Part shown: in pieces, positions 32,852 through 50,876 of the stretch | Numbering within the stretch: position 1 is the first letter of the stretch | Layout of the letters: every line of letters begins with the position of its first letter | Assembly: GCA_044221725.1 (NCBI GenBank) | Contig: JBGAON010000005.1 | Span: 269,344-333,343 of the forward strand | Length of the DNA: 64,000 nt | DNA from: Elusimicrobiota bacterium | Lineage (GTDB): Bacteria; Elusimicrobiota; Elusimicrobia; F11 | Direction of reading: 5' to 3' | Position numbers and translations under genes: made by a program | The notes under the pieces: generated by a model | What the model saw: the letters and a program-made list of their open reading frames with translations, nothing else | Database searches by the model: none | What the model was told of the DNA's origin: nothing

Positions 32852-33127
32852 ATGTCCAATACGGTAAAAATTAACGACGCCGAGAAACCCACGTCACCCA
32901 CCGGCAAAAAGCCATCGCCGCGCGTGGCGTTTGTTAATTTCGATCAATGCACCGGCTGCGAAGCGTGCATTGCGGTCGCGCCGTGGGACAACTGCCTCCT
33001 CCGCCAAAGTGACCTGCCCGAAACGTCCCACGTAAAAACAAACAACGAGGCCTGCACCGGTTGCACGCTTTGCATGAAGATTTGTCCGTGGGATGCCATT
33101 ACGATGGTTCCGCGGCCTTCGGCCTAA
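32852..33127 (+). CDS. 4Fe-4S dicluster-type ferredoxin; integration target of the element
   Basis: CTGCEACIAVAP and CTGCTLCMKICPWDAI; the last 15 codons are duplicated in recoded form at 63537-63581. Confidence 0.9.
   Translation: MSNTVKINDAEKPTSPTGKKPSPRVAFVNFDQCTGCEACIAVAPWDNCLLRQSDLPETSHVKTNNEACTGCTLCMKICPWDAITMVPRPSA
33083..33093 (+). other. attL core TGTCCGTGGGA
   Basis: Identical 11-mer at 63537-63547; both open the same CPWDAIxMxPRP reading frame. Confidence 0.85.
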
Positions 33128-33360: not shown

Positions 33361-33444
33361 TGTATGGCAGTTTGTATGGCATTGCTCTGGAATCTGCCAT
33401 CAAAAGTGTATGGCAATTCGGATTTGTTGGCAGAGGTGATGGCA
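33361..33444 (+). repeat. Putative integrase arm-type sites (TGTATGGCA direct repeats)
   Basis: TGTATGGCA at 33361, 33373 and 33407; variants TGTTGGCA 33425 and TGATGGCA 33437. Confidence 0.7.
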
Positions 33445-33545: not shown

Positions 33546-34364
33546 ATGTTGCCCAATCCCCTCTATGCTAAAGAGTCCAGCGAATTCTGGGCTCTCGTCA
33601 GATCTTCTTCTGAGAAGTTCGGCTATTCGAAACGGAAAGATAATCTATTGAAGCGATTTTCAATTGAGGACCTCGATGTTTTTAAAGAGCGTTTTCCCAT
33701 CGATTCCAAACTATGCAAAACGGTTGTAGATTATTTGAACTTTCGAGCTGAAGTGTTGGAGAAAAAGGTGCTCCCCAATCTGATGGATCGGCTTGAAGCT
33801 AAGAAAGAGTTTGAGAAATTATTGGGCAAGTATAAGCCCAAATTTCCTTTGGTGATGAATAAACAGAAGGGAGAGAAGCGTCATTACAATTATCTTTCCT
33901 GCATGGTGAATATTATCGCTGAAAAGCTCTTAGCTGATAAACCCTGCAACTTTAGCCCACGAGGGTTGTGTGTTCTGACCGACAAAGAAGGAAGACCAAT
34001 TAAGGTTTTATCTCGATGGTTGGATGGCGCGTATCCAGACGTCATAAATCCAGTAGCTATTTGGGAGATCAAGGAATATTACGGAACAACCACATTTGGA
34101 AGTCGCGTTGCGGATGGTGTTTATGAAACCCAGTTGGACGGATATGAGATCAATGAGGCTGAAAAAATATCCAACAAACGGATAAAACATTATTTATTCG
34201 TCGATGATCGGCGAACTTGGTGGGACATGGGAAAATCATATCTTTGTCGTATGATCGACATGTTGCACATGGGTTTTGTTGACGAAATAATTTTTGGAAG
34301 GGAAGTGGTTACTCGTTGGCCCGAAATTGTCCGATCTTGGGATTGCGAATCACCAAGTAAGTAA
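33546..34364 (+). CDS. Putative restriction endonuclease (PD-(D/E)xK-like)
   Basis: LDGAYP...AIWEIKEYY motif; converges on and overlaps a DNA methyltransferase gene. Confidence 0.6.
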   Translation: MLPNPLYAKESSEFWALVRSSSEKFGYSKRKDNLLKRFSIEDLDVFKERFPIDSKLCKTVVDYLNFRAEVLEKKVLPNLMDRLEAKKEFEKLLGKYKPKFPLVMNKQKGEKRHYNYLSCMVNIIAEKLLADKPCNFSPRGLCVLTDKEGRPIKVLSRWLDGAYPDVINPVAIWEIKEYYGTTTFGSRVADGVYETQLDGYEINEAEKISNKRIKHYLFVDDRRTWWDMGKSYLCRMIDMLHMGFVDEIIFGREVVTRWPEIVRSWDCESPSK

Positions 34365-35204
34365 CAACCTTTCTTTTACATCTTCGCCGATCATTACCTC
34401 GCCGCCATTCTGAAATCTTTTTAGCATCGAACTGCTTCCTCCAATCAAGATTTCTCGTTCGAATAGGCCCTCTGGAATGCCCAAGTTAATTACTTTCTTC
34501 CCTGATTTTTTGTGCCCGTCAATTGAGAGGGCCACCTTTGCACCGCGATCCTTGCAATCAATAATTGACTCAATAAGATCGGGAAGTTTAAACGATTGAG
34601 CGCCGTAAAGTATTGCCTGTGAATCCACATAAGGAGGGTCGCAGTAAATCAGGTCGCCTGATTTTGCCATGTTCATTGTTTCGGTAAATGGCTGATTAAT
34701 AAAACGTGTGAACTGAACACGTTCTTGCCATTCAAAAGCTCTTTGCGCAAATGATTCCGGGGGAATAGGTTTATGAGGGCCCACCGGAGTGCTGATGGTT
34801 CCTTGTTTTGTGAATCGAATCACGCCCCCGTAACACGTTCTGCTGATAATCAGTAGGTCGCAGGGGTTGGGATTGGCATTGTATCGAGCCAAGGTCTCAC
34901 GATAAATTACTTCCTTGTTTTCCAGTAGTTTCGGAATTACATCAGAATAATAATTGATTAATGTCTCCGGCTCCCTTTGGATGAGTTGCCAGAGGTCAAT
35001 CAATGGCGACAGCGTATCGCCTGCGATTGCTTTATCTGGTGAGAGTGTTGCCAGAATTGCGCCAGTCCCAATAAATGGCTCTATGAATGTTTCGTATGAG
35101 TCTGGGAAATGAGAAACGATTTCGTGCGCGTATTTGTATTTGCTGCCAATCCATTTTAGAAGTTGTCCATTCGGCTTGCTTGGGACGAATACTGCTGGTG
35201 TCAT
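34350..35204 (-). CDS. Dam-like (D12 class) N6-adenine DNA methyltransferase
   Basis: LKWIGSK, FIEPFIGTGAI motif I, IYCDPPY motif IV. Confidence 0.92.
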   Translation of the reverse strand: MTPAVFVPSKPNGQLLKWIGSKYKYAHEIVSHFPDSYETFIEPFIGTGAILATLSPDKAIAGDTLSPLIDLWQLIQREPETLINYYSDVIPKLLENKEVIYRETLARYNANPNPCDLLIISRTCYGGVIRFTKQGTISTPVGPHKPIPPESFAQRAFEWQERVQFTRFINQPFTETMNMAKSGDLIYCDPPYVDSQAILYGAQSFKLPDLIESIIDCKDRGAKVALSIDGHKKSGKKVINLGIPEGLFEREILIGGSSSMLKRFQNGGEVMIGEDVKERLLLTW

Positions 35205-35363: not shown

Positions 35364-36392
35364 CTAAACCGGGATTTTGCTGATATTTTTTAGATTCGGT
35401 AGATATGTCACAGCTTCTTTCAGGCTCGACGGCAACAAATGCGCGTAAATCTGTGTCGTGACGACAGTCGAGTGTCCCATCATCCGGCCAATTCGTAAAA
35501 GATCGACCCCCGCCATCGCCAAATGCGACGCAAACGTGTGCCTCAGCGAGTGGAGTGATCCCTTATTGATTCCGGCGCGCTTAAGTATTCGCGAGTAGGA
35601 TTGGGAGAACGCGATCTCTTTGTAGTACCAGGGGATAACGCGGCCCTCTCCGTTTTGTGAGGCAGCGCGCCAAATTTTGAGATGTTCGATCAACGCCGGG
35701 TGCATGGGAATTTCGCGCTCCTCCCGGTCCTTCGGGTGCCACTCTTCGTTCGGCTTGATACGCACAATCCCCGCTTGGAAATCCACGTCTTCCCACTTCA
35801 AGTTAAGCATCTCGCCACGCCGAAGCCCCAGATAGACCCCCAGATTAATGGCCGTTTGCCATAACGGATCCGCCGCCTTGAGAAGCGAATCGATTTCCTC
35901 CAGAGTGTAGAACACGGGGCGCTTTTTTACAGTCGGCATTTTTCGAACGCCCCAAATGTTGGAAGAGGCGTAGCTCCATTCGCCAGCTTTCTTCATGGCG
36001 GACTTGACCGTGACCAATTCGCGGTTGATGGTGGAGGCTTCAATCCCTTGATTCTTTCTGGTGAGCTTGAAGTCTTCCAAGTACTCTGGCGTCAAATCTC
36101 GTAACGTCCTTATAGGCATATATTTTCTGATGTTGGAAAAGACGACCCGAACTCGCACCACAGATGCGGGGGCCATGTTGGCCTCGCAATAGTTCATGTA
36201 TTGAGCTACAAAATCCTCCCAGAGGATTTCTTTTTCCGCTCCGTTCTTTTTGGCGTCGAGCCTTTTCTCGATGTCAGCCATTTCAATCCGCGCCAGGCGG
36301 ATATTGCTTCCCAGTGATTTTTCCTTCACCTTCCCGTCTTCCCGCCAATAGGCGGAATACGAATTTCCTCGTTGCCGTAATGCGACTGCCAT
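35364..36392 (-). CDS. Tyrosine integrase
   Basis: N-terminal arm-binding-like domain, STINREL, GLRRGE, HSLRHTFAS, MGHS, TQIYAH; catalytic R-H-R-H-Y set intact. Confidence 0.96.
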   Translation of the reverse strand: MAVALRQRGNSYSAYWREDGKVKEKSLGSNIRLARIEMADIEKRLDAKKNGAEKEILWEDFVAQYMNYCEANMAPASVVRVRVVFSNIRKYMPIRTLRDLTPEYLEDFKLTRKNQGIEASTINRELVTVKSAMKKAGEWSYASSNIWGVRKMPTVKKRPVFYTLEEIDSLLKAADPLWQTAINLGVYLGLRRGEMLNLKWEDVDFQAGIVRIKPNEEWHPKDREEREIPMHPALIEHLKIWRAASQNGEGRVIPWYYKEIAFSQSYSRILKRAGINKGSLHSLRHTFASHLAMAGVDLLRIGRMMGHSTVVTTQIYAHLLPSSLKEAVTYLPNLKNISKIPV

Positions 36393-36395
36393 AAG

Positions 36396-36599
36396 TCAGA
36401 CCCCCCGTTTTATTATTCGATGCAGACGAACCCACTGCTCCAACGCCTCCATCTCGACGCGAATAATCCGCTCTCCGGATTTTACCGCCCGAATTTTTCG
36501 AAGGCGAATCCATTCCCTCAACGTGTAGGGGGAAACGCGAAGCCATGCGGAGGCTTCTTTAACGGTGAGTAGTTTGTTCGTCTGCCCTGTTGTTTCCAC
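36396..36599 (-). CDS. Excisionase-like HTH protein
   Basis: LLTVKEASAWLRVSPYTLREWIRLRKIRAVK; directly upstream of the integrase. Confidence 0.85.
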   Translation of the reverse strand: METTGQTNKLLTVKEASAWLRVSPYTLREWIRLRKIRAVKSGERIIRVEMEALEQWVRLHRIIKRGV

Positions 36600-36653
36600 T
36601 CAGACCTACCTTCTTCTGATCAAGGCCATCAAGTCAAAGATTTTCAACGGAGG

Positions 36654-38021
36654 CTATGCCAAGTCTTCGACGTAGCTGATTCGCGGAGCAATTCGCATTT
36701 CCTGGACCGCCTGAAGGCTCATATATAGCGCGTCCAGGAGATCGTCGCGGCCGCGGGGAAAATTGACGAGTTCCTCTTCCAAATCCGGCAAGCTCTCCGG
36801 CAACCGAATGGCTCCATTTTCAAAGAGGACAGCGAGGCTTCGGATGCGCCGCTGTTTGTCGCCCGTGGTCGTGATGCCTTTGATGGGCAGGCGGGCGGTC
36901 GCCTCATCGACGCGCAACACCTGAAGCATGGATTGTTGGTAAGCGTTATTCTCTATGCAAACCAAGGTTGGTTTCCAAATGTGGCAGAACCGCTTGATAG
37001 TTGTGACTTGTTCCGGGAATTGAATATGAGCTCGGGTTGCTTCTAAGACGTAGGCATCCTTTTCGCCTTTTGGAATGCCGACAACAACGTATCCAAACCT
37101 TGAATGGGACTCCTTGGATCCGGACGCCAAATCAACGCCGATGTAAATATTCATGTCTTCGGGCCGCACGGTATAACGGCAAGAGCGAAGCCATTCCTGC
37201 TTAAACTCACTTTCCTGTACGGCGACATCGTTCAGCATTTGTAGGGAATAAGAACTGGCTCCCATCATGTTCCTTAACTCTTCCAGCTTTTGTTCCGAGA
37301 ACCGTTCGGGGAAAAGAAAATGTTTCTTGCCCTCTTCGTCTTTCCACTCGGCGCGCTGGACAATCTTTTTCCAATGATTAAATCCAGGCGTGCTGAGTAT
37401 GTGGCCGTAAAGGTCCTGCTGGTGCCATCGTGTGCCCACGATGCAAAGCTGACCGTCAGGCTCAAGCGATGGAAGGATGACACCGGTAAACCAGTCCAGT
37501 AATTTCTCTCGTTGCCCGGGCGCGTAGGATTTGGTGTTGGCCACCACGTCGTCCAGAATGATGAGATCGTTGTGCATGGAAACCAGATTGCCCATCACAC
37601 CGCCACAGGCAATGGATGGTTCCTTCACAACACGGGACCGAGGAATGGTGATGCTGTCTTCCGTCCACTTGGCGGCATTGGCATCCCAAGTGCCGTGGAG
37701 CTTTCGGAAGTTCTCATTCATGGTGATGTGCTGTTTGATCGCGTCCAATAGCTTCCGCGCAATCCCTTGCGTTTCGGCGATTATGAGAACGCGCAGATTG
37801 AGGTTTCTGGCCAGCCGCCAAAGCGGATAGCACGTGGTGACGACGGTCGACTTGAGATGGCCACGTGGAGCCAACAATAGGAGGTATTGGTTCTCCAACA
37901 ACGCTTGGTACCAGTCGATGTGAAGTCGAGTGAGCGCCTTGTAATCCAACACGTCCCGGCTGAACGCGAAAAGATCCTCAAGATGATCCACCGGCAGGTT
38001 TATTTTCTCTGGCTGTTTCAT
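36654..38021 (-). CDS. Phage terminase large subunit
   Basis: APRGHLKST Walker A, LIILDD Walker B, VGTRWH, GVDLA and DDLLDAL nuclease acidic residues. Confidence 0.9.
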   Translation of the reverse strand: MKQPEKINLPVDHLEDLFAFSRDVLDYKALTRLHIDWYQALLENQYLLLLAPRGHLKSTVVTTCYPLWRLARNLNLRVLIIAETQGIARKLLDAIKQHITMNENFRKLHGTWDANAAKWTEDSITIPRSRVVKEPSIACGGVMGNLVSMHNDLIILDDVVANTKSYAPGQREKLLDWFTGVILPSLEPDGQLCIVGTRWHQQDLYGHILSTPGFNHWKKIVQRAEWKDEEGKKHFLFPERFSEQKLEELRNMMGASSYSLQMLNDVAVQESEFKQEWLRSCRYTVRPEDMNIYIGVDLASGSKESHSRFGYVVVGIPKGEKDAYVLEATRAHIQFPEQVTTIKRFCHIWKPTLVCIENNAYQQSMLQVLRVDEATARLPIKGITTTGDKQRRIRSLAVLFENGAIRLPESLPDLEEELVNFPRGRDDLLDALYMSLQAVQEMRIAPRISYVEDLA

Positions 38022-38257
38022 GATTCGGCCCCCTCGATCAATGGTTGTTCAAAGAATCGTTCTAAATGTTGGTCCGCGTTTTCATAGGGAGAAATTCGTG
38101 AGTTAGAACGCTGTGGGAAACGGTTACCCCTTTGTGTTCGAGAGGCGGGCGAGAGGGGAGCATCCCCGCATCGATGGGCAAAATTTACGCTTTTCAAAAT
38201 GCCCTCCTCGAAATTCCTCTTTCCCGACGGAGAAATGTCAATTGAATGTGCATTCAA
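38018..38257 (-). CDS. Small hypothetical protein
   Basis: ATGA overlaps with both neighbours; no recognisable motif. Confidence 0.4.
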   Translation of the reverse strand: MNAHSIDISPSGKRNFEEGILKSVNFAHRCGDAPLSPASRTQRGNRFPQRSNSRISPYENADQHLERFFEQPLIEGAES

Positions 38258-38850
38258 TTGCCTCCAGGCGCACCACGTTGCGCCGTTTCGGTGGTGTTGC
38301 CGATGGATTTTGGGCCGGCGGGATCAGCGGCCGCCTCCCTTTTTTGTGGTTCGAGACCAGAGGCGCCTAGGTTCGTTTCGACGATTTTTTCTTTCAGGGG
38401 GTCGGCGGATTTCACTTCCTTGTGCTGGCGAAGGATCATGAGCGTATCCTCGCTCGCCGACCAGCCTGAAGAAGCAGGAGCGCTTTGGGCCTTGAGGGCT
38501 TGCGCGGCCTGGGACATTTTGTCGGCCAAAACCGCAATGGTGAGCGCCAAATCGCGGATGCCCTGCGGTTTTTCTTTTTTGAGTTCGCCATCAAGCCGAT
38601 GGAAGGTCAATCCAATGCTTGTCCAGCAGTGATCGATGAACGCTTTTGACCGCTTGTCTGTTTTGGATTGGAGGGAGGTCGGCATGCGGGACGTTAGGGA
38701 TTGATCCGCGTGACTCTTCCAATAAGACAGAAGCCCCTTGCTGATGCCCAACTCTTTGGCAACGTCGGTGAGAGGTTTGCCCGCGGCCAATTTCGCCAAT
38801 GCTCCTTTGATTTTTTCCGGGCTGTGACGCTGGGGACTTTTATTTTTCAT
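38254..38850 (-). CDS. HTH protein, terminase small subunit-like
   Basis: GKPLTDVAKELGISKGLLSYWK HTH, helical IRDLALTIAVLADK segment; upstream of terL. Confidence 0.6.
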   Translation of the reverse strand: MKNKSPQRHSPEKIKGALAKLAAGKPLTDVAKELGISKGLLSYWKSHADQSLTSRMPTSLQSKTDKRSKAFIDHCWTSIGLTFHRLDGELKKEKPQGIRDLALTIAVLADKMSQAAQALKAQSAPASSGWSASEDTLMILRQHKEVKSADPLKEKIVETNLGASGLEPQKREAAADPAGPKSIGNTTETAQRGAPGGN

Positions 38851-40748
38851 TGGGGTTGGCCTCCATTTGGTTTGGGAGGAGGCAGAACAACGCGTGACCC
38901 GGGGAAGTGATCTTGCGCCATTTTGATCACTTCGACGGATTTTTCGTCGTAATACTGGCGAAGCACTTTCTCGTGGTCATCAGAACCATTTTCCAGCGCG
39001 GTGGGGATATCAAGAGGAAGTGAACCTGTGAACCTAGGTGAACTATTCTCCCTCGTCCTATTATTGGACTCATCAAGGAGGTCCGATTTAGGTTGGGGTG
39101 AAAAAGGTTCACTGACGTTCACAGGTTCACTTTTGGGGGAGGGGGCTTTTTCCCCATTTCCCCCTTTTACCCCTACCGCATACCAACGCTCAGCGGATCG
39201 TCCCGCCGTGGGAACTTGTCTGAAGTACACTAAACCGCGGGTTTGTAGAAGGCCAAGGGCGGAACCGAGACTCCCGGATTTGTGGTGACCAAAAAGACGA
39301 GAACTGATTTCGGTCCGGGTCAAACCTTCGGGAGATGAGCGCAAAATGGAGAGGACTTCATCCGCCAATGGATTTCCGAGACTGTCGCCAAATATGTACA
39401 AGGCTGATTCTTCCGCGTAGCGCCACACTTCGAGCGCAGCTTCAAGGTGTTCTTTTCTGATGACGGTTGATTGATCGAGGAGCGCATAGATCAGCGCCAA
39501 ACGCATCACCTGAGCCTCGGCGCGAGAGATCACAGCGCCGAACAGACCTGGCTTACCCTCCGACAGTTTCTCGTATACCTCACGCCACAGCTTTCGAGCC
39601 TCAGGATCGCGCACAATGCACGTGCGCCCCAATTGTTGAGCAAACATCGCCGCTTTTTCAAACGCGAGATCCAATGGGCCAAAATCGACCGACCCAATGT
39701 CTCCACCCTCCGGCAGAACTTTTGACCGGCGGACACAGAAGAAAAGAATGCGGTTTGCAAAGCCATTGCCGATCTCCGTTCGATCCAAATAACGGCACAA
39801 CTCCTCCTTGGTAATGTGACCGCACATACTGATGTGAGCCTCGGTGGCTTTGGCGGGGGTGTTTTTGGTGAGAATACGAAGCCCACCGGTGTCCCACGCC
39901 TGGCGCACGACACCTGAGAGGCTGTTGCCATCGCGTTCCAGGACTCGCAACGTGGTGGCGAATTCCGGCTGAAGAGCCATGAGCCTCTTGTCAGAGACAC
40001 CAGGATCAACTTCAACCATCTGGTAATCTTCAACTTTCCCTTTCTTTTTGATGGGTTCTCGCTGCTGCACCGCGTCACGCACTGCATAGATGAGTCCTTC
40101 ACCGGAAGAAAGTCCTGTTTGTACGCAGTCGTCGACCCAATGACCGTCTATGGCTCTCATTCGTTCGCGGACATGTCCCCAAGACGTTCCTTTCCGGCCC
40201 TTCGCTGTCTCGCCGACCAAAACCGCGAAGAGGTTGGTGAAGTGACAGTCGGCTTCTGCTCTAAAGTGCGCCCCTCGGCCCACCACATTGCCGAAGGCTA
40301 CGAGTAGCTGGCTAAGGAGACCGACACGATCCGCCTCGGTATGAGGCTCCACCAAACGGACAAATTGTCCAGCAAGACCATGGAAGGCCTGCTCGCCCAA
40401 GGGTGACGGCCATTTTTGAGAAAACACTGTGGGGGAAGAAGGGGGATATGGGGAATAAGGGTCTGGTGCGTAGCGGCTGATGCTTTCGGAAATGGTTTTA
40501 ATCTCTTTTTCAGGGAGCGGTGGAGAGCAGTGGTGTTTATTTTCTTCCATCAGCGCGGCCAGGATGGCCTCTTGACCCATCCCTTTCCGGCGCATAGCGC
40601 CCGCCATGCTGGCAAGGCTTGCGTTTCTAGACCCTTCTGGAATCAATGCCGCCCCATTCATGGCCGGATGTGGCGCGGTTGGGAGTAAAAGCCCGTTTGT
40701 GAGCCAAGCGGGAGCCGGGGCCAGTGGCGTTAAATCGTTGGTTTCCAT
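38847..40748 (-). CDS. PriCT-like + DUF3987-like primase/helicase-associated replication protein
   Basis: IPEGSRNASLASMAG...PPLPEKEIKTISESI (PriCT), VGETAKGRKGT P-loop-like, NGFANR, C-terminal winged helix. Confidence 0.75.
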   Translation of the reverse strand: METNDLTPLAPAPAWLTNGLLLPTAPHPAMNGAALIPEGSRNASLASMAGAMRRKGMGQEAILAALMEENKHHCSPPLPEKEIKTISESISRYAPDPYSPYPPSSPTVFSQKWPSPLGEQAFHGLAGQFVRLVEPHTEADRVGLLSQLLVAFGNVVGRGAHFRAEADCHFTNLFAVLVGETAKGRKGTSWGHVRERMRAIDGHWVDDCVQTGLSSGEGLIYAVRDAVQQREPIKKKGKVEDYQMVEVDPGVSDKRLMALQPEFATTLRVLERDGNSLSGVVRQAWDTGGLRILTKNTPAKATEAHISMCGHITKEELCRYLDRTEIGNGFANRILFFCVRRSKVLPEGGDIGSVDFGPLDLAFEKAAMFAQQLGRTCIVRDPEARKLWREVYEKLSEGKPGLFGAVISRAEAQVMRLALIYALLDQSTVIRKEHLEAALEVWRYAEESALYIFGDSLGNPLADEVLSILRSSPEGLTRTEISSRLFGHHKSGSLGSALGLLQTRGLVYFRQVPTAGRSAERWYAVGVKGGNGEKAPSPKSEPVNVSEPFSPQPKSDLLDESNNRTRENSSPRFTGSLPLDIPTALENGSDDHEKVLRQYYDEKSVEVIKMAQDHFPGSRVVLPPPKPNGGQPQ

Positions 40749-41266
40749 TTATAGATGCCTCCGCTGATGTGGACGCTGGGTGGAGCCACCACATAGCCAC
40801 CATCTCCTCGGATGTCGATCCCCGGCAAGAGGTCGACCCTGTTTTTCATCGGTTTATCGCACGGATGGAGAAAATAAAGGTGTCGCCCTCCACCACCGGT
40901 GGCGCATTCAAGCGTGGCCGTCAACGGGCCTTTGCTGACCTCAAGCTCGGCCAGCGACACATCTCCGCCCCGCGCTGGGTCAATATCCAACACGACAATA
41001 TTGCTGACCATGCCTGTCGCAATGCCGATGTTCGCTTCCGGCCAACGACCCCACCAATTAAGGATGCGGGCCTCGTTGGTGGTGGCCTCCAACACCCCGT
41101 GTTTAACCCGTGGGTGTTTGGCTGGGCTCGAGCATTTGGGATTCCCGCAGGCGCACCCGCCACGGCCGTCCGGTTCGTAAACCGGAAAAATTGGCCAGCC
41201 CTTCCGATTGATGTAATCGAGGGCGGCCTCGCGCTTGGTGATCGCTGTTTTAATCGATATTTGCAT
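40730..41266 (-). CDS. Bifunctional DNA primase/polymerase (prim-pol) domain
   Basis: GWPIFP, CACGNPKCSSPAKHP, NIGIATG, VLDID, TGGGGRHLYF, DIRGDGGYVVAPPS; GGAGAGGAG RBS before ATG 41266. Confidence 0.92.
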   Translation of the reverse strand: MQISIKTAITKREAALDYINRKGWPIFPVYEPDGRGGCACGNPKCSSPAKHPRVKHGVLEATTNEARILNWWGRWPEANIGIATGMVSNIVVLDIDPARGGDVSLAELEVSKGPLTATLECATGGGGRHLYFLHPCDKPMKNRVDLLPGIDIRGDGGYVVAPPSVHISGGIYKWKPTI

Positions 41267-41279
41267 TCTCCTCTCCCAC

Positions 41280-41351
41280 AAAAAAAGGCGCTGTCATCGG
41301 CGGATCAAATAACCCGCCAACAACAGCGCCTCGGTTTGTCCGACAACGCTA
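41280..41351 (-). promoter_or_regulatory. Antiterminator-like hairpin overlapping an intrinsic terminator (copy 1)
   Basis: Minus strand TAGCGTTGTCGGACAAACCGAGGCGCTG..., then a 20-bp stem with G-U pairs, TATTTG loop and T run. Confidence 0.75.
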
Positions 41352-41356
41352 AATAG

Positions 41357-41533
41357 CTATTGTTTTTTTGATAATTCTCGTTTCAATTCTTCCAACTTCA
41401 TGCTCCGTTCTTCTTGGATCCGGCAGATGCGGCCATCCTCCCAGCTTAGAACCACTTTCCCATAGAAGCGACGCTGGCGCATAAGGCGAACCCACTCAAG
41501 TAAAATTTCCTCAGGGATGGGCCCACCGCTCAT
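41357..41533 (-). CDS. 58-aa YezD/DUF2292-like small protein (below the ORF-track cutoff)
   Basis: MSGGPIPEEILLEWVRLMRQRRFYGKVVLSWEDGRICRIQEERSMKLEELKRELSKKQ; GGAG RBS; FYG-V-x-x-x-x-DG-I-x-x-I-x-x-E pattern. Confidence 0.7.
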   Translation of the reverse strand: MSGGPIPEEILLEWVRLMRQRRFYGKVVLSWEDGRICRIQEERSMKLEELKRELSKKQ

Positions 41534-41629: not shown

Positions 41630-42631
41630 TCAGGCCGTATAAAGCTCAAGTCCCTCCGGGGTATAAACCTCAGACAAAGTCCAGGACTCGAGCGCTTTTT
41701 TCAATTTTTTATCGCCCTTCGCAGCCCACCCCAGCGACCGGCACAGTGTCCGCGCCAGCAATGCGCTAAGCGTGGCCTGAGCCCCGCTGTAGGCTTCGAT
41801 GGTTTCTTCCCGGTTTCTCTCTTTGGCAACGTACAAGTCATAGTGGATGCGGGAGGTGACGTCCTCCCAACTTTTTTGAAAGCGGAGAAGATAGCGTGGA
41901 TCAACATCCAGTTTTCCTTTGGACCGGACAAAGCAAACCATGTCCAATAATTGGAGGAAGGCGACGCGGGAATCGACGGCATGCCCAGACGTATTGAGTA
42001 TCCGAAGCGGAACATCCGACAACTCATTGCGAAGTTTCTCGCTTTCGATTCGAGCGATTTCCTCTTCCTTCATTCGCGGGAGGTTCTGTTTATGGGAGAG
42101 ATCGTTTATGGCTTTTTGAATTCGTTTGTGCGCTTCCTCTTGAATAAGCCATCCCCACCGGTCGTCAGCGAGTCGGATCTGCAATGTCAGCCGCTTTAAA
42201 CTCATAGCCTCATAGTCCCGCGTATAGTTATCCTTTCGCCCGTTGATCCCGACGAAGGCATAGAAGTGATTGAGATCGTCGAGGAAAATCTTAAAAAAGG
42301 CGTCGAGGTATTCGTCTCGTAATTGAATGATTCCTTGTTTGAATAGGTATTCGGCCAGCCACTTCCGAATCTGCGTATCGGAGCATCCCACGATGCGACC
42401 GATCTCGGCCAGCGTCCGGCGCCGCGTTGATTTCCAAAGAAGCATTTGGAGTTGAGCATTGAATTTCTTCTGTGTCAGTGGCCGAGTTTCATCGCGGGGA
42501 ATACCGGTGCGGGGTTGTTCTTCGAATGATTCTGACTTGCGCTGCATAAATAGAAGAAGATCAACGTCGGAGAAAAAATCCCGACGCGTTTTGTATTGGG
42601 GTGGAAGAAATCGGTCCGGCCCATTAACCAT
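41630..42631 (-). CDS. Hypothetical protein with an HTH
   Basis: TLAEIGRIVGCSDTQIRKWL; 333-aa ORF co-oriented with the module. Confidence 0.65.
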   Translation of the reverse strand: MVNGPDRFLPPQYKTRRDFFSDVDLLLFMQRKSESFEEQPRTGIPRDETRPLTQKKFNAQLQMLLWKSTRRRTLAEIGRIVGCSDTQIRKWLAEYLFKQGIIQLRDEYLDAFFKIFLDDLNHFYAFVGINGRKDNYTRDYEAMSLKRLTLQIRLADDRWGWLIQEEAHKRIQKAINDLSHKQNLPRMKEEEIARIESEKLRNELSDVPLRILNTSGHAVDSRVAFLQLLDMVCFVRSKGKLDVDPRYLLRFQKSWEDVTSRIHYDLYVAKERNREETIEAYSGAQATLSALLARTLCRSLGWAAKGDKKLKKALESWTLSEVYTPEGLELYTA

Positions 42632-42685: not shown

Positions 42686-43570
42686 CTAAAACCGTGGGTG
42701 AGCTTGCTGGCAGGTTTCTCGAAGGGCTTGATGATTGAGATTCAAATAGCGTTGTGTTGACGTCAGATTGGAATGCCCCAACAATAATTGAAGCGAACGC
42801 AGATCCGCTTTTCCCTGGAGCATGTGCACGGCGAACGAATGGCGCAATAAATGAGGATAAACGCGTCGCGTTATCCCAGCGCGGGCCGAATACCGTTTGA
42901 ATTTTCGCCAAAATCCGTTCTTTCCAAGCCGGGTCCCGGATCGCGTTAAGAACAGTGCGCTACACCCATTCCCGGATTTGTCGGTTCTTCTTTGCAGATA
43001 AGCTCGCAGTGACTTAATCGCCTTCGTTCCAATCGGGACCAACCGTTCCTTTGATCCTTTGCCTTTCACTTTGATGTAGCCATCGTCCAAGTGGAGATGT
43101 TCGACGTTCAGACCGATAGCCTCGCCGATACGAAGTCCGCAATAAAGAATTTCCAGAATCGCCTGATCTCTCGTCCCCAAGAAAGTCGACTGCGAAGGAG
43201 CCGAAAGTAATCGCTCAACTTCCTCCACCGACAAGGGTTCCACAACGGAGATCTTCAATTCGGGCAATATCAGCCCGACCGTTGGGTCAAATTCCGCGTA
43301 ACCCTTTTCAACCAGAAACCGATGAAATGATCGAATCGCGATGGTGGCGCAGAATCGGGTGGTTGGGCTCAACCCACGATGGCTCAACTCTCCAACGTAT
43401 CTATTTGTCAACTTGCTGGTAGCAATAATGGGACCCGAATTCGCTTCTTGAAGGAATCGGCCATAAGCCTCCAGGTGATGGCTGTAGGTGATGGCAGTAT
43501 TTTCGGAGAGCCCGCGATCACTCCGTAGATGATTTAGAAATTCGGACAGATATTCTTTATGAAAGTTCAT
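42686..43570 (-). CDS. XerD-like tyrosine recombinase
   Basis: RGLSENT SAM-like domain, RDQAILEILYCGLRIGE, GKGSKERLVP, PHLLRHSFA, LLGHS, TQRY. Confidence 0.92.
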   Translation of the reverse strand: MNFHKEYLSEFLNHLRSDRGLSENTAITYSHHLEAYGRFLQEANSGPIIATSKLTNRYVGELSHRGLSPTTRFCATIAIRSFHRFLVEKGYAEFDPTVGLILPELKISVVEPLSVEEVERLLSAPSQSTFLGTRDQAILEILYCGLRIGEAIGLNVEHLHLDDGYIKVKGKGSKERLVPIGTKAIKSLRAYLQRRTDKSGNGCSALFLTRSGTRLGKNGFWRKFKRYSARAGITRRVYPHLLRHSFAVHMLQGKADLRSLQLLLGHSNLTSTQRYLNLNHQALRETCQQAHPRF

Positions 43571-44033
43571 GGCCGTTTGCCTTGGGCTTGAGGACTCGAA
43601 CGTGTTTCTTGTCGTCCTTTTCGATTTTCCATGCCTTACGAGAGAAGGAAACCATGCGGGCGCGCACGTTGGCCTCAACATCTTTGCCCTTGGCGAGATC
43701 CGCCGCCTGTTTGATGGCGAGCGCGGCGATTTCCTTCACGGTTTTTCCGCCAGCGAATAGCATCGGATCGATAGTCGCCGAGAGAGATTCTTTGTTCGAT
43801 TTTCGACCGCCTTTGCTCCGACCGCCCCCATTGGCGCGGATCAAGGTTTTCGCTTCCTTGCTGATCTGCGATTCCTTGTAGGATTTTAGTTCGTAGTTTT
43901 TAGAGACTTCGATGTCGTTTTCCGATCCGCCGATCTTCAAAACCACCTTATCGTTTTTGTGACCGACAACGGTGACCGGCGTCCCTTTTTTTGACAGATA
44001 CTTTTGACCTACTTTTGCGTCGATGGCGTTCAT
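43557..44033 (-). CDS. Basic hypothetical protein, possible DNA-binding
   Basis: 158-aa Lys-rich ORF with GGAGG RBS. Confidence 0.65.
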   Translation of the reverse strand: MNAIDAKVGQKYLSKKGTPVTVVGHKNDKVVLKIGGSENDIEVSKNYELKSYKESQISKEAKTLIRANGGGRSKGGRKSNKESLSATIDPMLFAGGKTVKEIAALAIKQAADLAKGKDVEANVRARMVSFSRKAWKIEKDDKKHVRVLKPKANGHELS

Positions 44034-44034
44034 A

Positions 44035-44272
44035 TTAGCGCCCTCCTTTTTTTGTTGTGACTGTTTTCTTGAAAACGGCGAAGTTCACACCTTCGCATTT
44101 CGGGCCTTCGATTTTTCGGATGACCCTGCGTAGATGGGGCGATCCATTCTTTGTCTTGCCCGGACCGATCCTCCGGCGCGAGCTGGCCCGATTGGATCAT
44201 GTGGATCTTTGATCCCAGCGCCTCGACGATTTCTACCCAGTCGGCCATTTCGAATTTGATGGTGTTCTGCAT
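44035..44272 (-). pseudogene. Small hypothetical gene with a probable frameshift
   Basis: MQNTIKFEMADWVEIVEAL...KEWIA then reads as amphipathic HLRRVIRKIEG in a shifted frame at the G4 run 44136-44139. Confidence 0.35.
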
Positions 44273-44592
44273 ACCCCTAGTTGCCTCCTTATCTCGCCCA
44301 CGTTGCGCCGTTCGTGCAACCCGTTGCCCTGTTTGGGCTATTTTTGCCGCTTTGTCCGGACCCAAGTACAGCGAGTTCGCGAATCAATCAAGGCCTTTTG
44401 TCGTCGACATCGCGCAATAAATCAAATCGATTCCGAGTCATCGAAATTTGGCGATTTGAGGTTTGTTTGGATAGGGAAGGACTACCTTCTTCAAAATAGG
44501 AAGCCAAGTCGAAGATCAAGTTAAAAGTTTTCAGGCGTGGCAATCTTCGATTCCTTCATGAAACCGGACAAGGTAAACTCACCTCTTAATCT

Positions 44593-46425
44593 ATGAGTGA
44601 AGAAATTCCCAGAAAAGACATTGTTTATTTTTCGTCGGCCAAATATCTGATCGGGTGTGCGGTGGCGGCTGTCGTCTTCCTATTGATCGGGAAAATTAAT
44701 CCATTTCCGGCCTGGTTTATTGCAGTGGAAGTGTTTGTGGCGGTGATTGCGCTTTTTGTCTTTGGGTCCATCCGTGACCGCCTGGACAAAAATGCGCTGA
44801 CCTATGGCGCGGTTCTCATCATCACAGCGACGTTTTGGGAATCGTGGTGGAGAGAATCGGGATTGAGAACCGATTTTTCAGCCGAAGGTTTTGGCGCGAT
44901 CCTTCGGTTTTTTCAGCACCATTTCCTGTCACTGCATGGCTTAGATGAGATCGTTCACGCCGATACCATGTTGTTTATTTTAGGCCTAACGTTTTTTGTC
45001 GCGGTCATAGCTCAGACCCGTATTCTCGAAACGATTAGTTTTTCCATCCTCAATAAGTTCAAAGGAAACGTTGTGCCAACGGTGGCGCTTCTCGCGGCCA
45101 TCGTCTCATTCTCATCGGGTATTTTGGATGGTGTTTCCATGATCGGCCTGATGATCCGGACGCTTGTGATCATCCTCTTCCTGGCCAGAATTAAGGATGA
45201 AGCTGTTGTGTATGCGGTGGTGGTATCGACGGTGGTCACAACGGTGTGCGGAATGTGGCTGGCCTATGGAGAACCACCCAACCTCATCATGAAATCCAAT
45301 CTCTCGCCGCATCTGAATGACGCGTTCTTCCTGCGATATTGCTTGCCGGTTGCCATCGGCGCTTATTTCATCGTGCTTTGGAACATCAAGCGAAAACTCA
45401 AGGGTCAGAAAGTCGACATATCGAAACTGGATGTGCTTGACCTCAATACGGCGGATGTACGGTTCATTCAGGCGCAACGGCATGGCAAAGTTTTAACGCC
45501 GATAGAGTTTGCTGAAGAGCACCGCCAGCAACTGGCCGAGCATTACGAACCGTTGATTCGCCGGCTTCATCAGGGTGAGACGCTTGGCGACGCTTTGACG
45601 GCCGAGCATATTCCACAAAGTGTCCGGCAATATCTAATGGGGCAATATGTGTCGGAAGATCTTGCGGAGGCGCTGGATCACCATTACTCAGTCGTGTTGA
45701 AAGATGATGCGCTTAATAACGATGATTCCATGCGCAAGATATCCAAGGCGCTGGCATGGATCCGCCAACGTCGAGTGCGTACACAATGGATTGGCGGCAT
45801 TTCGTTTATCCCATTTATCGGACTCTTGGTCTGGCATGCGATTGACCATGACGTTCCACTTTTTCTGGCATCTTTCGCCGGATTCGCAGTCGCCTTCTTA
45901 GGTATTCTAGGGATCACCAATATGCGGAGATTGGCTTTGCGCGAGGCCCGCCACGAATATGCGGAGTACCTTTTTCTTTTCCCGCTTTTCTTCTCGATAA
46001 CCCTGCTTCAAAAGACCGGTTTCTTTCAGCAGCTTGCGGATTTGCTCCATCACGGCGTCGAAAAATTGGGCCCACCACACATGGCCTTTCTTCAATTTAT
46101 CGGGACGGGATTTTTGTCTGCGATGTTGGACAACAACGTCGTAGCGGATTTCGCGGGCCGGGCGATTATGGGATTGGAATTAAGCGTTCTTCACCTTTTC
46201 GCCATGGCCCAGATTGCAGGATACGCGGTGGGGGGATGCTGGACACACATCGGTTCGGCCCAATCGGTTGTGGCTTATTCGTTCATTCGAAATGAAGTCG
46301 ACGAACACTTCACGCCGTTTCAGTGGATCAAAGCCATGACCCCTATCGTCTTAGAAATTTCGGTTTGGGTGACCGTGGTTATCTATGGCGAGGCTCTCCT
46401 TTTGCAATATCTTCCGGAGCATTAG
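44593..46425 (+). CDS. Ion transporter superfamily permease (SLC13/ArsB/NhaD-like)
   Basis: Many TM segments, GILDGV, YGEPPNLIM, SAMLDNNV, THIGSAQSVVA. Confidence 0.8.
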   Translation: MSEEIPRKDIVYFSSAKYLIGCAVAAVVFLLIGKINPFPAWFIAVEVFVAVIALFVFGSIRDRLDKNALTYGAVLIITATFWESWWRESGLRTDFSAEGFGAILRFFQHHFLSLHGLDEIVHADTMLFILGLTFFVAVIAQTRILETISFSILNKFKGNVVPTVALLAAIVSFSSGILDGVSMIGLMIRTLVIILFLARIKDEAVVYAVVVSTVVTTVCGMWLAYGEPPNLIMKSNLSPHLNDAFFLRYCLPVAIGAYFIVLWNIKRKLKGQKVDISKLDVLDLNTADVRFIQAQRHGKVLTPIEFAEEHRQQLAEHYEPLIRRLHQGETLGDALTAEHIPQSVRQYLMGQYVSEDLAEALDHHYSVVLKDDALNNDDSMRKISKALAWIRQRRVRTQWIGGISFIPFIGLLVWHAIDHDVPLFLASFAGFAVAFLGILGITNMRRLALREARHEYAEYLFLFPLFFSITLLQKTGFFQQLADLLHHGVEKLGPPHMAFLQFIGTGFLSAMLDNNVVADFAGRAIMGLELSVLHLFAMAQIAGYAVGGCWTHIGSAQSVVAYSFIRNEVDEHFTPFQWIKAMTPIVLEISVWVTVVIYGEALLLQYLPEH

Positions 46426-46447
46426 CCGAAACCGTAGGTGTACTGGC

Positions 46448-47059
46448 TTATTCAAGCGCAGTGAGGATTTTTTTCTGAATTTCTTCGCCATCGATTGAAA
46501 GACTTAACTTTTTGTGAAACAAGCGGTAGTGATTAATGAGGCCTGTCGAATAAGAAGCAAGTGATAGAGCCATTGTTCTTGCCTTCTCAGCTTGGCGGGA
46601 GGACCCACCTAGGGATCGAATCAAAAGATCTGCCAGTTGAAGGAGATAGTCTCCGTAGATTTCCTTAAGATTCGCAGAGATTCCCTGCTTAAGCTGAAGC
46701 AAACCTCTGACTTGATGAAAAATAAGAACAAATGATTCTTCTCTCAATAAAAAATCAACATGGGCTTTTACGAGTGCCTTTAAGGCATCTTGATGGTTGT
46801 CGTTTTTTTGAACCGACAACTGGCATCGAGCCATAAGCTTGTCGAGTCCGTCTCTGAGGAGGTTTTCGAGCAGTTCGTCTTTCCCAGAGAAATACTGATA
46901 GAAGGTGCCCTTTCCAATATCCGCCTTCTCGGTGACGTCTTCAATGGTTGTTACGTAGATACCTTGTCTTGAAATGATATCGAGAGCTACGGCCATGAGC
47001 GTTTCGCGCGTTAGTTTTTTCTTTCGTTCCCGCCTCGTCAAATCTTCCGTTGCTTCCAC
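46448..47059 (-). CDS. TetR/AcrR-family regulator
   Basis: RRERKK...TTIEDVTEKADIGKGTFYQYFSGKDEL. Confidence 0.93.
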   Translation of the reverse strand: MEATEDLTRRERKKKLTRETLMAVALDIISRQGIYVTTIEDVTEKADIGKGTFYQYFSGKDELLENLLRDGLDKLMARCQLSVQKNDNHQDALKALVKAHVDFLLREESFVLIFHQVRGLLQLKQGISANLKEIYGDYLLQLADLLIRSLGGSSRQAEKARTMALSLASYSTGLINHYRLFHKKLSLSIDGEEIQKKILTALE

Positions 47060-47116
47060 GTTTCCTCCCCAGTACGGGTTATCAAGATAATTACGTGTGA
47101 GAATCCTTGCATAATC

Positions 47117-47150
47117 TTGACCGGTCAGTCAATTTTGACTACTGTGTCAA
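47117..47150. promoter_or_regulatory. Two tandem TTGAC-N6-GTCAA operators
   Basis: TTGACCGGTCAGTCAA (47117-47132) and TTGACTACTGTGTCAA (47135-47150) between divergent tetR and otsA. Confidence 0.7.
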
Positions 47151-47205
47151 AAATGGGACCCGCACACGTATTTTTCCTAAAAAAAGCTGATTCGACGGAG
47201 TCAAA

Positions 47206-49461
47206 GTGAAGATCACGCTCCGTCTTGTTTTATCGCTGGTGGCCGTCATAACGATGGTGGTCGCTCTATTCACGTTTTTGCAAGTCCGGCATGAAGAAAA
47301 AGTGATGCTGGAAGAAATGGAACGAAGGGGCGCGCTTCTGGCGGAAAGTCTTCAGGATTCTATTGAGCCCCATCTTGCTCCCCGCAATGAAAAGGGACTT
47401 GCGAGAATTGTTGAGAAATTCGGGAATCGTGAACGCGTGGCTGGAATTGCGGTTTACGGTCCTGACAAATCAATTGTTGCCATGACGAAGAGTCTCGCAG
47501 CCTGGCTTCCCGATCCGCCCTCTGCGGTCGCCACCTCTCTTGCCGAAGGAACGGCGCGGGGTGAGCTTTTCAGTCCTTCAAAAGAAAAAGCAATTTACGG
47601 ATATTTCTTTCCTTTCACTTCCCCGGACGGCTCCTCCTACTTATTGGCATCCTATCATCCCGCCAATCACATTCGCACACGTCTTAGAGACTTGTACCAA
47701 CAAGGGTTTATCCGCCTGTTCTTACAGGCATTTCTCATTTCGCTTGTAACGATTTTCATTATTCGATGGAACGTCATGGCCCCGCTCCATAAGGCCGCTG
47801 ATTGGATTAAGAAGCTTCGCCTGGGAGAAGAAGGACCCCACGCCTCTCTTCCGAAAGAACTTTTTGGTCCCCTGGAAAAAGAAGTGACTCGCTTAGCGAA
47901 GAGTTTTACGACCGCTCGGGCCGCCGCTGAAGAAGAGGCCAAGCTCCGCCAGCAAGCCGATTCCATTTGGACCTCCGACCGCCTGCGTGAGTATGTTCGC
48001 ACGAAACTGCCGGATCAAAAGCTTCTAGTGGTTTCTAACCGCGAGCCCTACATGCATGTCCGAAAAGGAAAAGACGTTGACTGCATCATGCCGGCCAGCG
48101 GTCTTGTCACGGCGCTTGAACCCATATTGAGAGCCTGTGGTGGCACGTGGGTGGCGCATGGAGCCGGAGGCGCTGATAAGGAAATGACCGGTACAGACAA
48201 TCGGCTAAAGGTTCCACCGGATGAGCCCCAGTACCTCCTTCGCCGAGTTTGGCTTTCGAAAGAGGAAGAAGATGGCTATTACTACGGATTTTCCAATGAA
48301 GGGTTTTGGCCTCTATGTCACATCGCTCATAATCGTCCCGTTTTTAAGCCTGAAGACTGGGACTATTATCAAACTGTCAACGGCAAGTTCGCTGACGCCG
48401 TTTTGGAAGAAATTGAAAATGACGAAGAGCCTTTGATTCTAATTCAGGACTATCATTTTGCTCTCCTCCCCCGGTTGATCAAGGATAAGCGCCCGGATGC
48501 GCGTATCGCTCTTTTCTGGCATATCCCTTGGCCTAATCCTGAATCATTTGGCATCTGCCCGTGGCAGCGCGAAATCGTTCATGGAATGCTGGGCGCGGAC
48601 CTCATTGGATTTCACATCCAACAACACTGCACCAATTTCTTAGACACCGTGGACCGAACGGTTGAATGCCGGATCGATTGGGAACGATTCGTTGTTAATC
48701 GGCAAGACCACAAAACGCTCGTCAAACCGTTTCCCATCAGTGTTGCGTTAACACCCTCGGCGACAAATGGATCACCGGCCCCTAAACCTTCCGCTGATAA
48801 AGAAGCGATCTTCAAGCAACTTGGGATTAAAGGGCAATATCTTGCCGTGGGAGTGGATCGAATTGACTACACCAAAGGCATTATCGAACGGTTCCGGGGC
48901 ATCGAACGTTTCTTGGAAAAAAACCCCAATTATCAAGGCAAGTTCGTGTTTGTGGAATTGGGCGCGCCGAGCCGCACCCTTATCAAACGCTACCACGATC
49001 TGATGGCGGAAGTGGAAGAGGAAGCCGAGCGGATCAATTGGAAGTTCAAGTCAAAAGAATGGCAGCCCATCGTGTTTTTAAAGAAACATCACAGTCATCA
49101 AGACATTGAGCCTTTCTACAAAACGGCTGACCTGTGTCTTGTCACCTCGTTGCACGATGGAATGAATTTGGTCGCCAAAGAATACATTGCCGCCCGCGAC
49201 GATGAAGATGGCGCTCTGATACTAAGCCGGTTCACTGGCGCTTCGCGAGAACTTCCTGATGCTTTCATCATTAATCCCTACGACGTGGATAGAACCGCCG
49301 ATGCGATACGGGCCGCGTTGGAAATGGAACCCGAGGAACGCCGAAAAAGAATGCGGCGAATGAGAACAGTGGTGATGGGAAACAACATTTATAAGTGGGG
49401 CGCCAACTTGATCGAAGATCTTTCGCAAATCAGATTGGAAACCAACACGCCGGTCGCTTAA
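47206..49461 (+). CDS. otsA: Trehalose-6-phosphate synthase with N-terminal 2-TM sensor/HAMP-like fusion
   Basis: VVSNREP, ASGLVTAL, IQDYH, HIPWP, VDRIDYTKG, DGMNLVAKEY; about 270 extra N-terminal residues with two TM helices. Confidence 0.92.
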   Translation: MKITLRLVLSLVAVITMVVALFTFLQVRHEEKVMLEEMERRGALLAESLQDSIEPHLAPRNEKGLARIVEKFGNRERVAGIAVYGPDKSIVAMTKSLAAWLPDPPSAVATSLAEGTARGELFSPSKEKAIYGYFFPFTSPDGSSYLLASYHPANHIRTRLRDLYQQGFIRLFLQAFLISLVTIFIIRWNVMAPLHKAADWIKKLRLGEEGPHASLPKELFGPLEKEVTRLAKSFTTARAAAEEEAKLRQQADSIWTSDRLREYVRTKLPDQKLLVVSNREPYMHVRKGKDVDCIMPASGLVTALEPILRACGGTWVAHGAGGADKEMTGTDNRLKVPPDEPQYLLRRVWLSKEEEDGYYYGFSNEGFWPLCHIAHNRPVFKPEDWDYYQTVNGKFADAVLEEIENDEEPLILIQDYHFALLPRLIKDKRPDARIALFWHIPWPNPESFGICPWQREIVHGMLGADLIGFHIQQHCTNFLDTVDRTVECRIDWERFVVNRQDHKTLVKPFPISVALTPSATNGSPAPKPSADKEAIFKQLGIKGQYLAVGVDRIDYTKGIIERFRGIERFLEKNPNYQGKFVFVELGAPSRTLIKRYHDLMAEVEEEAERINWKFKSKEWQPIVFLKKHHSHQDIEPFYKTADLCLVTSLHDGMNLVAKEYIAARDDEDGALILSRFTGASRELPDAFIINPYDVDRTADAIRAALEMEPEERRKRMRRMRTVVMGNNIYKWGANLIEDLSQIRLETNTPVA

Positions 49462-49463
49462 CG

Positions 49464-50626: not shown

Positions 50627-50876
50627 GGCTATTTACATGCTGTGCGGCCTCACAAGCGTTGGCTGCGCAATTCTGTTGGTAAGGCGTTATCTCCGCACAA
50701 AAACCAAGCTTCTTCTTTTGAGCAGCGTTTTCTTTATGACGCAAGCCGTGACGAATATTCTTCTTTTTGTTGATCTCGTTGTGGTGCCTGATATCGATTT
50801 GTCCCCGCTGCGAAGTCTCATCGCTATTATCGGGCTCGTTTTTCTTCTATTCGGCTTGATCTGGGAAACTTCATGA
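50619..50876 (+). CDS. Small 3-TM protein (DUF5985-like)
   Basis: IYMLCGLTSVGCAILL...NILLFVDL...GLIWE. Confidence 0.75.
   Translation: MIKAIYMLCGLTSVGCAILLVRRYLRTKTKLLLLSSVFFMTQAVTNILLFVDLVVVPDIDLSPLRSLIAIIGLVFLLFGLIWETS

Follow-up and report, generated by a model that had tools for sequence, protein, structure and literature searches.

What use is a phage DNA-packaging motor to an integrated element that has no head to fill? The question is raised by a 64,000-nucleotide stretch of an Elusimicrobiota bacterium (GenBank assembly GCA_044221725.1, contig JBGAON010000005.1, positions 269,344 to 333,343; hereafter the window), in which an integrated island of 30.45 kb, bounded by attachment (att) sites (33084-63574), encodes an intact large terminase (TerL) among replication and integration genes. 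The original prediction, made for the operon that forms the core of this island, proposed either a satellite of an undescribed type, equipped with a full terminase and using borrowed heads, or a reduced prophage. Our comparisons support the satellite and not a simple deletion: the island is probably a satellite resembling phage-inducible chromosomal islands (PICIs), one that would bring a full terminase and borrow the heads and tails of a helper. In what follows, G000 is the genome of the window (G000:C2:269344-333343) and C2, C3, and C5 are its contigs; other G numbers denote genomes of a phylum set of 401, and L numbers denote individual loci fetched.

Gene content and recurrence of the island core

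The island core comprises the following features (window coordinates and strand):

33084..33120, plus: attL core, in the 3' end of the ferredoxin gene (32852-33127)
35364..36392, minus: tyrosine integrase (Int; phrog_1, E 5e-62)
36396..36599, minus: excisionase-like helix-turn-helix (HTH) protein (Xis; HTH_17, phrog_66)
36654..38021, minus: intact TerL (phrog_38, E 5e-86; motifs as in full prophages)
38022..38260, minus: conserved terS-terL spacer, a candidate pac/cos-like site (palindrome at 38239-38260, core motifs, TAGAAC/GTTCTA repeats)
38254..38850, minus: putative small terminase (TerS), 198 aa, N-terminal HTH and helical centre (weak HTH/TerS profile matches)
38847..40748, minus: PriCT plus DUF3987 replication protein, putative helicase (Pfam PriCT_1, DUF3987)
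39018..39132, no strand: inverted repeats of the GTGAACC type within the 3' end of the replication gene, a candidate origin of replication
40730..41281, minus: Prim-Pol (bifunctional primase/polymerase N-terminal domain; Pfam Prim-Pol, E 2e-43)
41280..41350, minus: RNA leader, an intrinsic terminator with an overlapping competing hairpin, likely an attenuator (covariation)
41357..41533, minus: 58-aa protein, weakly DUF2292/YezD-like, candidate antiterminator (homology and position)
63460..63574, plus: arm-type repeats and attR core (63538), at the junction to older units of a tandem array

The minus-strand order from the 58-aa frame through Prim-Pol, PriCT plus DUF3987, the HTH protein, TerL, and Xis to Int was found as it had been described. 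TerL ends 54 bp from xis (36654 versus 36599), and its Walker A/B, motif III, and nuclease acidic motifs match those of the full prophages of the family. The run is less tightly coupled than was claimed, with a 232-bp spacer between terS and terL and a strong terminator before prim-pol. The att sites that were said to bound the operon do exist, but they enclose an element far larger than the flagged range, with a restriction-modification pair, an Xer-like gene, and ~19 kb of cargo. The Xis-like protein matched HTH_17 and phrog_66 and gave no match to AlpA.

The claim that no portal, capsid, tail, lysis, or conjugation gene lies between the att sites also held. No portal, capsid, tail, or lysis family was found in a PHROGs scan of 38 open reading frames (ORFs; 14 core and 24 cargo), and no conjugation family appeared in general Pfam, PHROG, and NCBIfam scans, none of which was aimed at conjugation. 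The portal, protease, capsid, tape measure, tail, and amidase proteins of a prophage resident on contig C3 had no tblastn match in the 30.5-kb element, and no capsid-resizing or morphogenesis gene was seen in it.

The same gene order recurs in other genomes, as the satellite proposal anticipated. A TerL search of the 401 genomes returned 35 matches in 26 genomes (flanks were fetched for the 33 outside G000, and the two in G000 were read directly): a portal gene follows terL in 22, an integrase module follows it in 12 (tyrosine in 3, serine in 9), and 1 distant match was left unassigned. The 12 capsid-less loci come from 10 genomes and at least five host families, with L004 and L037 counted once as the same element. 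Helper structural proteins matched none of the 12 regions (6.5-59 kb) by tblastn, while both of two control prophage regions were positive. Simple deletion would have been indicated had the closest relatives carried portal and capsid genes after terL; instead, the two nearest relatives with context, G371 and G350:C14 (TerL 82-83% identical), are capsid-less. The next closest TerLs (55-66%) belong to full prophages, and the terminase is therefore phage-derived. Two named loci and the named close homologs of TerL are labelled Elusimicrobiota, in agreement with that phylum as the likely host.

A quick IQ-TREE phylogeny of 49 TerLs places the capsid-less TerLs (11 rows) in three clades with support of 100, 100, and 99, among or beside prophage lineages. 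As judged from substitution patterns, TerL is under purifying selection inside these clades, like phage TerLs. Nei-Gojobori ratios of nonsynonymous to synonymous substitution rates (dN/dS), from pairs that share branches and are hence non-independent, are 0.052-0.085 for capsid-less TerLs (6 unsaturated of 10 pairs) and 0.042-0.068 for prophage TerLs (6 unsaturated of 8). In the window's own clade, the proportion of nonsynonymous differences is 0.11-0.14, with synonymous sites saturated at 0.76-0.80. Several different integrases and insertion sites occur across the family, which implies mobility.

Probable terminase exchange, a candidate helper, and a shared leader

The product of 38254..38850 is putatively TerS; the earlier assignment of this HTH protein draws support from its position, homology, and site co-variation, but it gained no significant match to a TerS family. 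Of the 45 non-outgroup loci in the tree set, 42 have a homolog of it before terL. In a FastTree phylogeny of 42 putative TerS (the portal tree was also made with FastTree), eight capsid-less rows form one clade with support of 100 and no prophage member, and two other capsid-less TerS group with a different prophage type. A profile of the satellite TerS gave seven matches at E<1e-60 in the 401 genomes, all of them in capsid-less elements. The TerLs of the eight satellite-TerS elements come from two lineages, and a single TerL clade for seven of the eight was rejected (approximately unbiased test, p 0.006, 22 rows, LG+G4; the group was defined from the TerS tree but named after the TerL tree had been inspected). 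One TerS clade combined with more than one TerL origin makes it likely that, in the window lineage, TerL was replaced while TerS stayed. A zinc-ribbon-like, cysteine-rich C-terminal extension is seen in some TerLs near the window's and in the second capsid-less clade (P0007, P0009, L046, L048, L049, L051), hinting that the TerL body may have been swapped and the tail kept. In L153 (9980-12166), a prophage TerL frame extends to 728 codons without the usual C-terminal tail, through a frameshift or an assembly error.

The 232-bp spacer between terS and terL is conserved across the family and has short core motifs common to all members. All eight satellite-TerS elements have TTGAATG-N2-(C/T)ATTCAA plus two to six TAGAAC/GTTCTA copies there; in 31 prophage spacers, a CATAAT...ATTATG-type palindrome occurs in 23, the satellite palindrome in none, and a single TAGAAC/GTTCTA copy in 1 (the motifs were selected after the sequences had been viewed, and one spacer was positioned ad hoc). 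Each palindrome is present once in G000. Palindrome and repeat type track the TerS clade and not the TerL clade, as expected of a candidate TerS binding site; in lambda, according to the accessible text of PMC9026076, DNA specificity is TerS-based and a C-terminal tether links terminase to portal. The palindrome and repeats may alternatively serve as an operator. A 79-codon ORF overlying the spacer has no Pfam or PHROG family match and is read as non-coding. Related TerS-only, PICI-like elements (L247, L248, L250) have Int proteins that share 42-48% identity with the window Int, and they retain a comparable spacer; in two of them, the replicase resembles a family A DNA polymerase.

A possible helper resides in the same genome. 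The complete-looking siphoviral prophage at G000:C3:76707-142350 (L001-L003, L260) encodes a serine integrase, repressor, primase, TerS, TerL, and portal, followed by protease, capsid, adaptor, neck, tail, tape measure, and amidase, and a 27-bp repeat suggests a length of ~65.6 kb att to att (~63.9 kb for a related prophage in G282). Over residues 1-400, its portal shares 88.5-89.4% identity with portals of G282 whose partner TerLs belong to the window lineage; those TerLs are 58-60% identical to the window TerL and 48-49% identical to the C3 TerL. The TerL C-terminal tail reads IAPRISYVEDLA in the window, KIEPCINFVEDLA in C3, and KGRISFVEDLA in G282. A conserved tail, together with the occurrence of near-identical portals alongside both TerL lineages, makes docking of the window TerL on the helper portal plausible. 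The pairing of one portal family with several TerL lineages also offers a natural test of terminase-portal compatibility. G282, of the same genus, holds six prophages of the family (L041-L043, L249, L251, L040) with two TerL lineages and similar portals. In the C3 prophage, the portal carries a fused minor-head domain and the head module contains a double methyltransferase; an AAA ATPase-peptidase pair is also present, with a kdp operon as cargo.

Two copies of the 30.45-kb island would amount to 93-95% of the 64-66-kb helper length, and two copies of a 25.4-kb capsid-less element of G350 to 77-80%; filling of the helper head with two copies is speculative, coming as it does from two element sizes. 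Low-depth fragments nearly identical to the core, and spread across it, occur in a sequencing run from another study. An RNA run has pieces on int, rep, and orf333 (described below), which we did not accept as expression.

The same small-protein/RNA terminator motif precedes the head genes of the C3 prophage and the island operon. An iterative search for the leader gave 35 hits, of which 20 lie directly before a prophage head protease, 4 before a capsid-less primase, 1 before terL, and 5 in cargo, the other 5 being reverse-strand self matches. An alignment of 25 copies shows compensatory changes at 11 of the 16 pairs in the terminator fold. The competing hairpin over the terminator 5' arm, with 94.8% pairing and 18 double changes, exceeds all 500 shuffles on both measures and all slid controls (its structure was derived from the same sequences that score it, a bias in its favour). 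The 5' leader fragment of the window by itself folds no better than shuffles at this hairpin (z 0.03), and the evidence for the hairpin is therefore covariation. In the BglG/SacY ribonucleic antiterminator (RAT), a small hairpin overlaps the 5' arm of an intrinsic terminator. The island leader resembles the BglG/LicT RAT in this overlap but scores 18.8 bits with the Rfam family bglG-cis-reg (gathering score 80; no Rfam family reached its gathering score), and it is accompanied by no CAT-domain protein; its candidate reader would be the 58-aa DUF2292-like protein. That protein has 22 distinct homologs in the fetched loci, mostly just upstream of the RNA motif, and a fairly strong Atlas lead to a cluster of which 30% is DUF2292. 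A literature search for DUF2292/YezD returned no relevant paper, and a promoter scan stayed at chance level. We infer that the leader exerts antitermination control, with the 58-aa protein as the candidate antiterminator. Leader copies also stand before cargo genes (MgtC-like and unannotated) at window positions of approximately 53386-53492 and 57544-57650, at C3:78228 and C3:85191, and in L245, which suggests that cargo expression is tied to the same signal.

In the life cycle that we propose, Int and Xis would excise the element from the att copies at the ferredoxin 3' end, and Prim-Pol and the DUF3987 protein would replicate it from the inverted repeats. Terminator read-through, and hence induction, would be tied to the late programme of the helper by the small protein and hairpin RNA common to both. 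The satellite TerS would then bind the co-varying site between terS and terL, and the island's own TerL would cut and pump the DNA while docked on the portal of a helper siphophage from the co-occurring prophage family.

Rival readings and known satellites

Three other readings have to be weighed against a satellite that brings its own terminase. The elements could be reduced prophages, derived from temperate phages by repeated deletion of head, tail, and lysis genes. What is left would be immobile or mobile through its integrase, and decay would not have reached its TerL so far. The position of the capsid-less TerL clades among or beside full-prophage TerLs fits this, as do the broken copies that occur and the published interpretation of an archaeal element of similar make-up, NitKor-E1, as a relic (accessible text of PMC6563490). 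Full prophages with related Int proteins also occupy the same ferredoxin site in G282 and G350, the window Int being 71.6% identical to that of the G282 prophage. Loss without function is, however, hard to reconcile with saturated synonymous sites or dN/dS of 0.05-0.085 in capsid-less clades that span several host families, or with a separate TerS clade and candidate site. In the G282 prophage, moreover, int and xis are oriented away from the replication-terminase-portal operon, whereas in the capsid-less elements terL runs into xis-int, and the window replicase is similar to prophage primases over Prim-Pol and PriCT only; a single deletion therefore does not account for the layout. We regard reduced prophages as an unlikely explanation. 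No likelier, in our estimate, is a module retained by the host, whose terminase would compete for the proheads of invaders as a defence or package in situ, transducing cargo and flanking chromosome. The restriction-modification genes and large adaptive cargo suit such a role, the flat depth and missing circle in a possible source run agree with it, and induction by a phage late signal would serve defence equally well. Against it stand the intact Int and Xis, two att sites with arm repeats, the replicase and candidate origin, and the mobility implied by several integrases and insertion sites; this reading and the satellite are not mutually exclusive. TerL might, finally, act mainly as a nuclease that resolves replication products, with packaging left to the helper terminase or absent. 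The TerS-only sister elements indicate that TerL is dispensable for some relatives, but its ATPase motifs and C-terminal tail are conserved as much as its nuclease residues, and an Xer-like recombinase is already present, so that we consider this very improbable.

Several observations weigh against the satellite that we prefer. The putative TerS has no significant family, structure, or PDB sequence match, its profile matches being weak (a single-sequence model had a pLDDT of 44, an unusable fold), and the C3 prophage TerL is just 47% identical to the window TerL. The possible source run covers host and element at an even depth of ~29 and shows no excision joint (contigs only). A portal-linked TerL prophage was found in only 3 of the 10 genomes with capsid-less elements, by a search that missed two G282 prophages. 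Of the 10 capsid-less elements whose replicase start is visible, just 4 have the leader, which is therefore not family-wide. Contigs are no longer than 15 kb for 5 of the 12 capsid-less loci and 1 locus starts at a contig edge, and some copies show decay (the G144 TerL is interrupted, and L005 contains a 79-aa remnant). The frame running from att, int, and xis to Xer, cargo, and att, with its Int and Xer modules, is common to full prophages, and neither the satellite TerS nor orf333 was found in IMG/VR. Att pairs were not found for most of the other capsid-less elements.

Outside the phylum set, an alignment search of IMG/VR with TerL yielded 255 relatives, of which 80 were kept and the best 22 (L149-L170) inspected; a portal follows terL in all of these 22 that have sequence past terL. 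Among 80 metagenome loci (25-41% identity), classification covered 3. A single-sequence TerL search of IMG/VR gave no match. Satellite TerS was not found among GenBank phages, and TerL matches in GenBank phages and plasmids are distant, at no more than 31% identity among the best matches listed.

The accessible portions of PMC10085698 and PMC13612085 assign TerL to capsid-forming PICIs (cf-PICIs) and state that classical PICIs lack it, in line with the background given in the original prediction. Classical PICIs (SaPIs and Gram-negative PICIs), as those portions describe them, resemble the island in integrase, excisionase/regulator, primase-type replication, TerS (putative in the island), accessory defence, and the lack of structural and lysis genes, and TerS-only sister elements occur in the phylum of the island. 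The island has the att-flanked site-specific integrase, primase/replicase, and Xis-like regulator of a classical PICI without portal, tail, or lysis genes, but it encodes an intact TerL, measures 30 kb att to att against a 9.5-kb median PICI core, has no capsid-morphogenesis gene, and probably has its operon under the control of a terminator that also stands before helper head genes. With cf-PICIs, in the same accounts, it shares TerL, putatively TerS, an integrase, a primase, and the lack of tails and lysis genes; unlike them, it has no capsid, portal, protease, or head-tail genes, and heads as well as tails would therefore have to be borrowed. A complete or recently broken prophage would have a head/tail module or its remnants after terL, where the island has xis. 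The island would thus work like a PICI, yet it lies outside PICI membership by its TerL and outside cf-PICI membership for want of capsid and portal.

As to whether the type is undescribed, no described family of capsid-less, TerL-bearing satellites was found in a literature search that covered few subscription papers and no supplements, such as the SatelliteFinder variant lists; the available parts of PMC11389934 and of a 2026 transductomics preprint contain nothing specific to such elements. That part of the proposal stands as far as families go, but in the published text available the architecture has one precedent, NitKor-E1 of Ca. Nitrosopumilus koreensis AR1 (PMC6563490). That archaeal element is also integrated, with TerS-TerL, a tyrosine integrase, a restriction endonuclease, and no other virion gene; unlike the island, it stands alone and is called a cryptic element, probably a relic, and the accessible text analyses neither a family nor selection. 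The spindle-shaped archaeal virus satellites pSSVx/SRCEs (10.1101/2025.02.15.638363, available portion) likewise combine their own replication module and a virus-type ATPase with borrowed capsids, but their AAA+ ATPase is unrelated, their virion type different, and their origin plasmid-derived, so that the likeness is one of working. PICMIs (PMC10803314), VEIMEs (PMC9618062), and EPIPs (PMC12822802) are also integrative, capsid-borrowing satellites; the accessible texts mention TerL for none of them and TerS for some VEIMEs and all EPIPs. PICMIs, which package concatemers without capsid remodelling, are described there as Vibrionaceae elements next to fis with three core proteins, whereas the island sits at a ferredoxin gene and has a terminase; the tape measure protein, head-tail adaptor, and serine integrase given for EPIPs are absent from the island.

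On balance, we slightly favour the broader proposal of an undescribed satellite class between PICIs and cf-PICIs, which would have its own terminase and packaging site, use helper portals, have captured helper-phage TerL on three or more occasions, and be switched on by helper late antitermination. In current models of satellites, TerL marks a capsid-forming element or a phage, and TerL-plus-integrase islands are therefore filed as relics or counted as viruses. The present family appears to keep TerL under selection without a capsid, with TerS-only, TerS-plus-TerL, and full-phage forms in one phylum. If our reading is true, it adds a packaging strategy, in which a satellite's own motor fills a borrowed shell, makes TerL unsafe as a phage marker, and provides a route by which ~20 kb of cargo for stress and defence could move within a phylum that has been little studied.

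Boundaries, cargo, and tandem units

The remaining features of the island are as follows:

33361..33415, plus: putative arm-type integrase sites, three TGTATGGCA copies
33546..34364, plus: type II restriction endonuclease, defence cargo (PADLOC REase_II, E 2e-71)
34350..35204, minus: type II adenine methyltransferase (Pfam MethyltransfD12; PADLOC MTase_II)
41630..42631, minus: 333-aa HTH protein (orf333), putative regulator (HTH_28; Atlas leads to XRE/HTH regulators, short of the highest confidence)
42686..43570, minus: XerD-like tyrosine recombinase (matches below curated cut-offs)
43557..44365, minus: pair of small ORFs belonging to the Xer module; compared with the C3 copy, the distal ORF has a frameshift (two-piece tblastn)
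44593..63269, no strand: cargo, ~19 kb (many family matches below curated cut-offs)

The att core is the 3' end of the ferredoxin gene; four further copies share GTCCGTGGGA, at window position 63538 and at C5:5433, 8138, and 9586, and repeats similar to the TGTATGGCA sites lie beside each copy. These copies came from genome BLAST and a pattern search, a direct-repeat search having missed the pair, which diverges after 10 bp. A tRNA or tmRNA as att site was ruled out, none being present within the window. The end of C2 and the start of C5 are both insertion-sequence-like termini with a matching 3-bp duplication and therefore likely join, which would make the 30.45-kb element the gene-proximal, and likely newest, unit of a tandem att array. 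From 63538 to the window end and through G000:C5:1-9630, the tandem att copies are separated by short, integrase-less units bearing cargo, which by eye includes an antitoxin/toxin-like pair and a helicase. The ferredoxin end is kept in frame, as a CPWDAI type in four of the five att cores and SPWDAI in the fifth.

Homologs of orf333 are present in other capsid-less elements, and the XerD-like recombinase occurs in eight of them as well as at the ends of full prophages. Core and cargo meet at the Xer-like recombinase and its two small ORFs in the window (42686-44365), at C3:98.3-100.4 kb, and in L245, an arrangement common to prophages and satellites. The cargo includes genes of transport and regulation (a transporter, TetR, MgtC-like, PadR, major facilitator superfamily, LysR) and of trehalose metabolism and oxidative stress (trehalose synthase, phosphatase, and TreT-like proteins, flavodoxin, superoxide dismutase-like, AhpD-like). 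An inverted repeat like the candidate origin was found in 5 of 10 capsid-less elements checked. Among the capsid-less relatives, a BREX-like cluster in L238 (G054) and nucleotidyltransferase and type III restriction-modification-like genes in L235/L036 (G371) were noted by eye as defence-like cargo. Elsewhere in the window, short palindromic repeats resembling repetitive extragenic palindromes, with many copies in the genome, lie at 19047-19127, 19961-20001, and 21659-21761.

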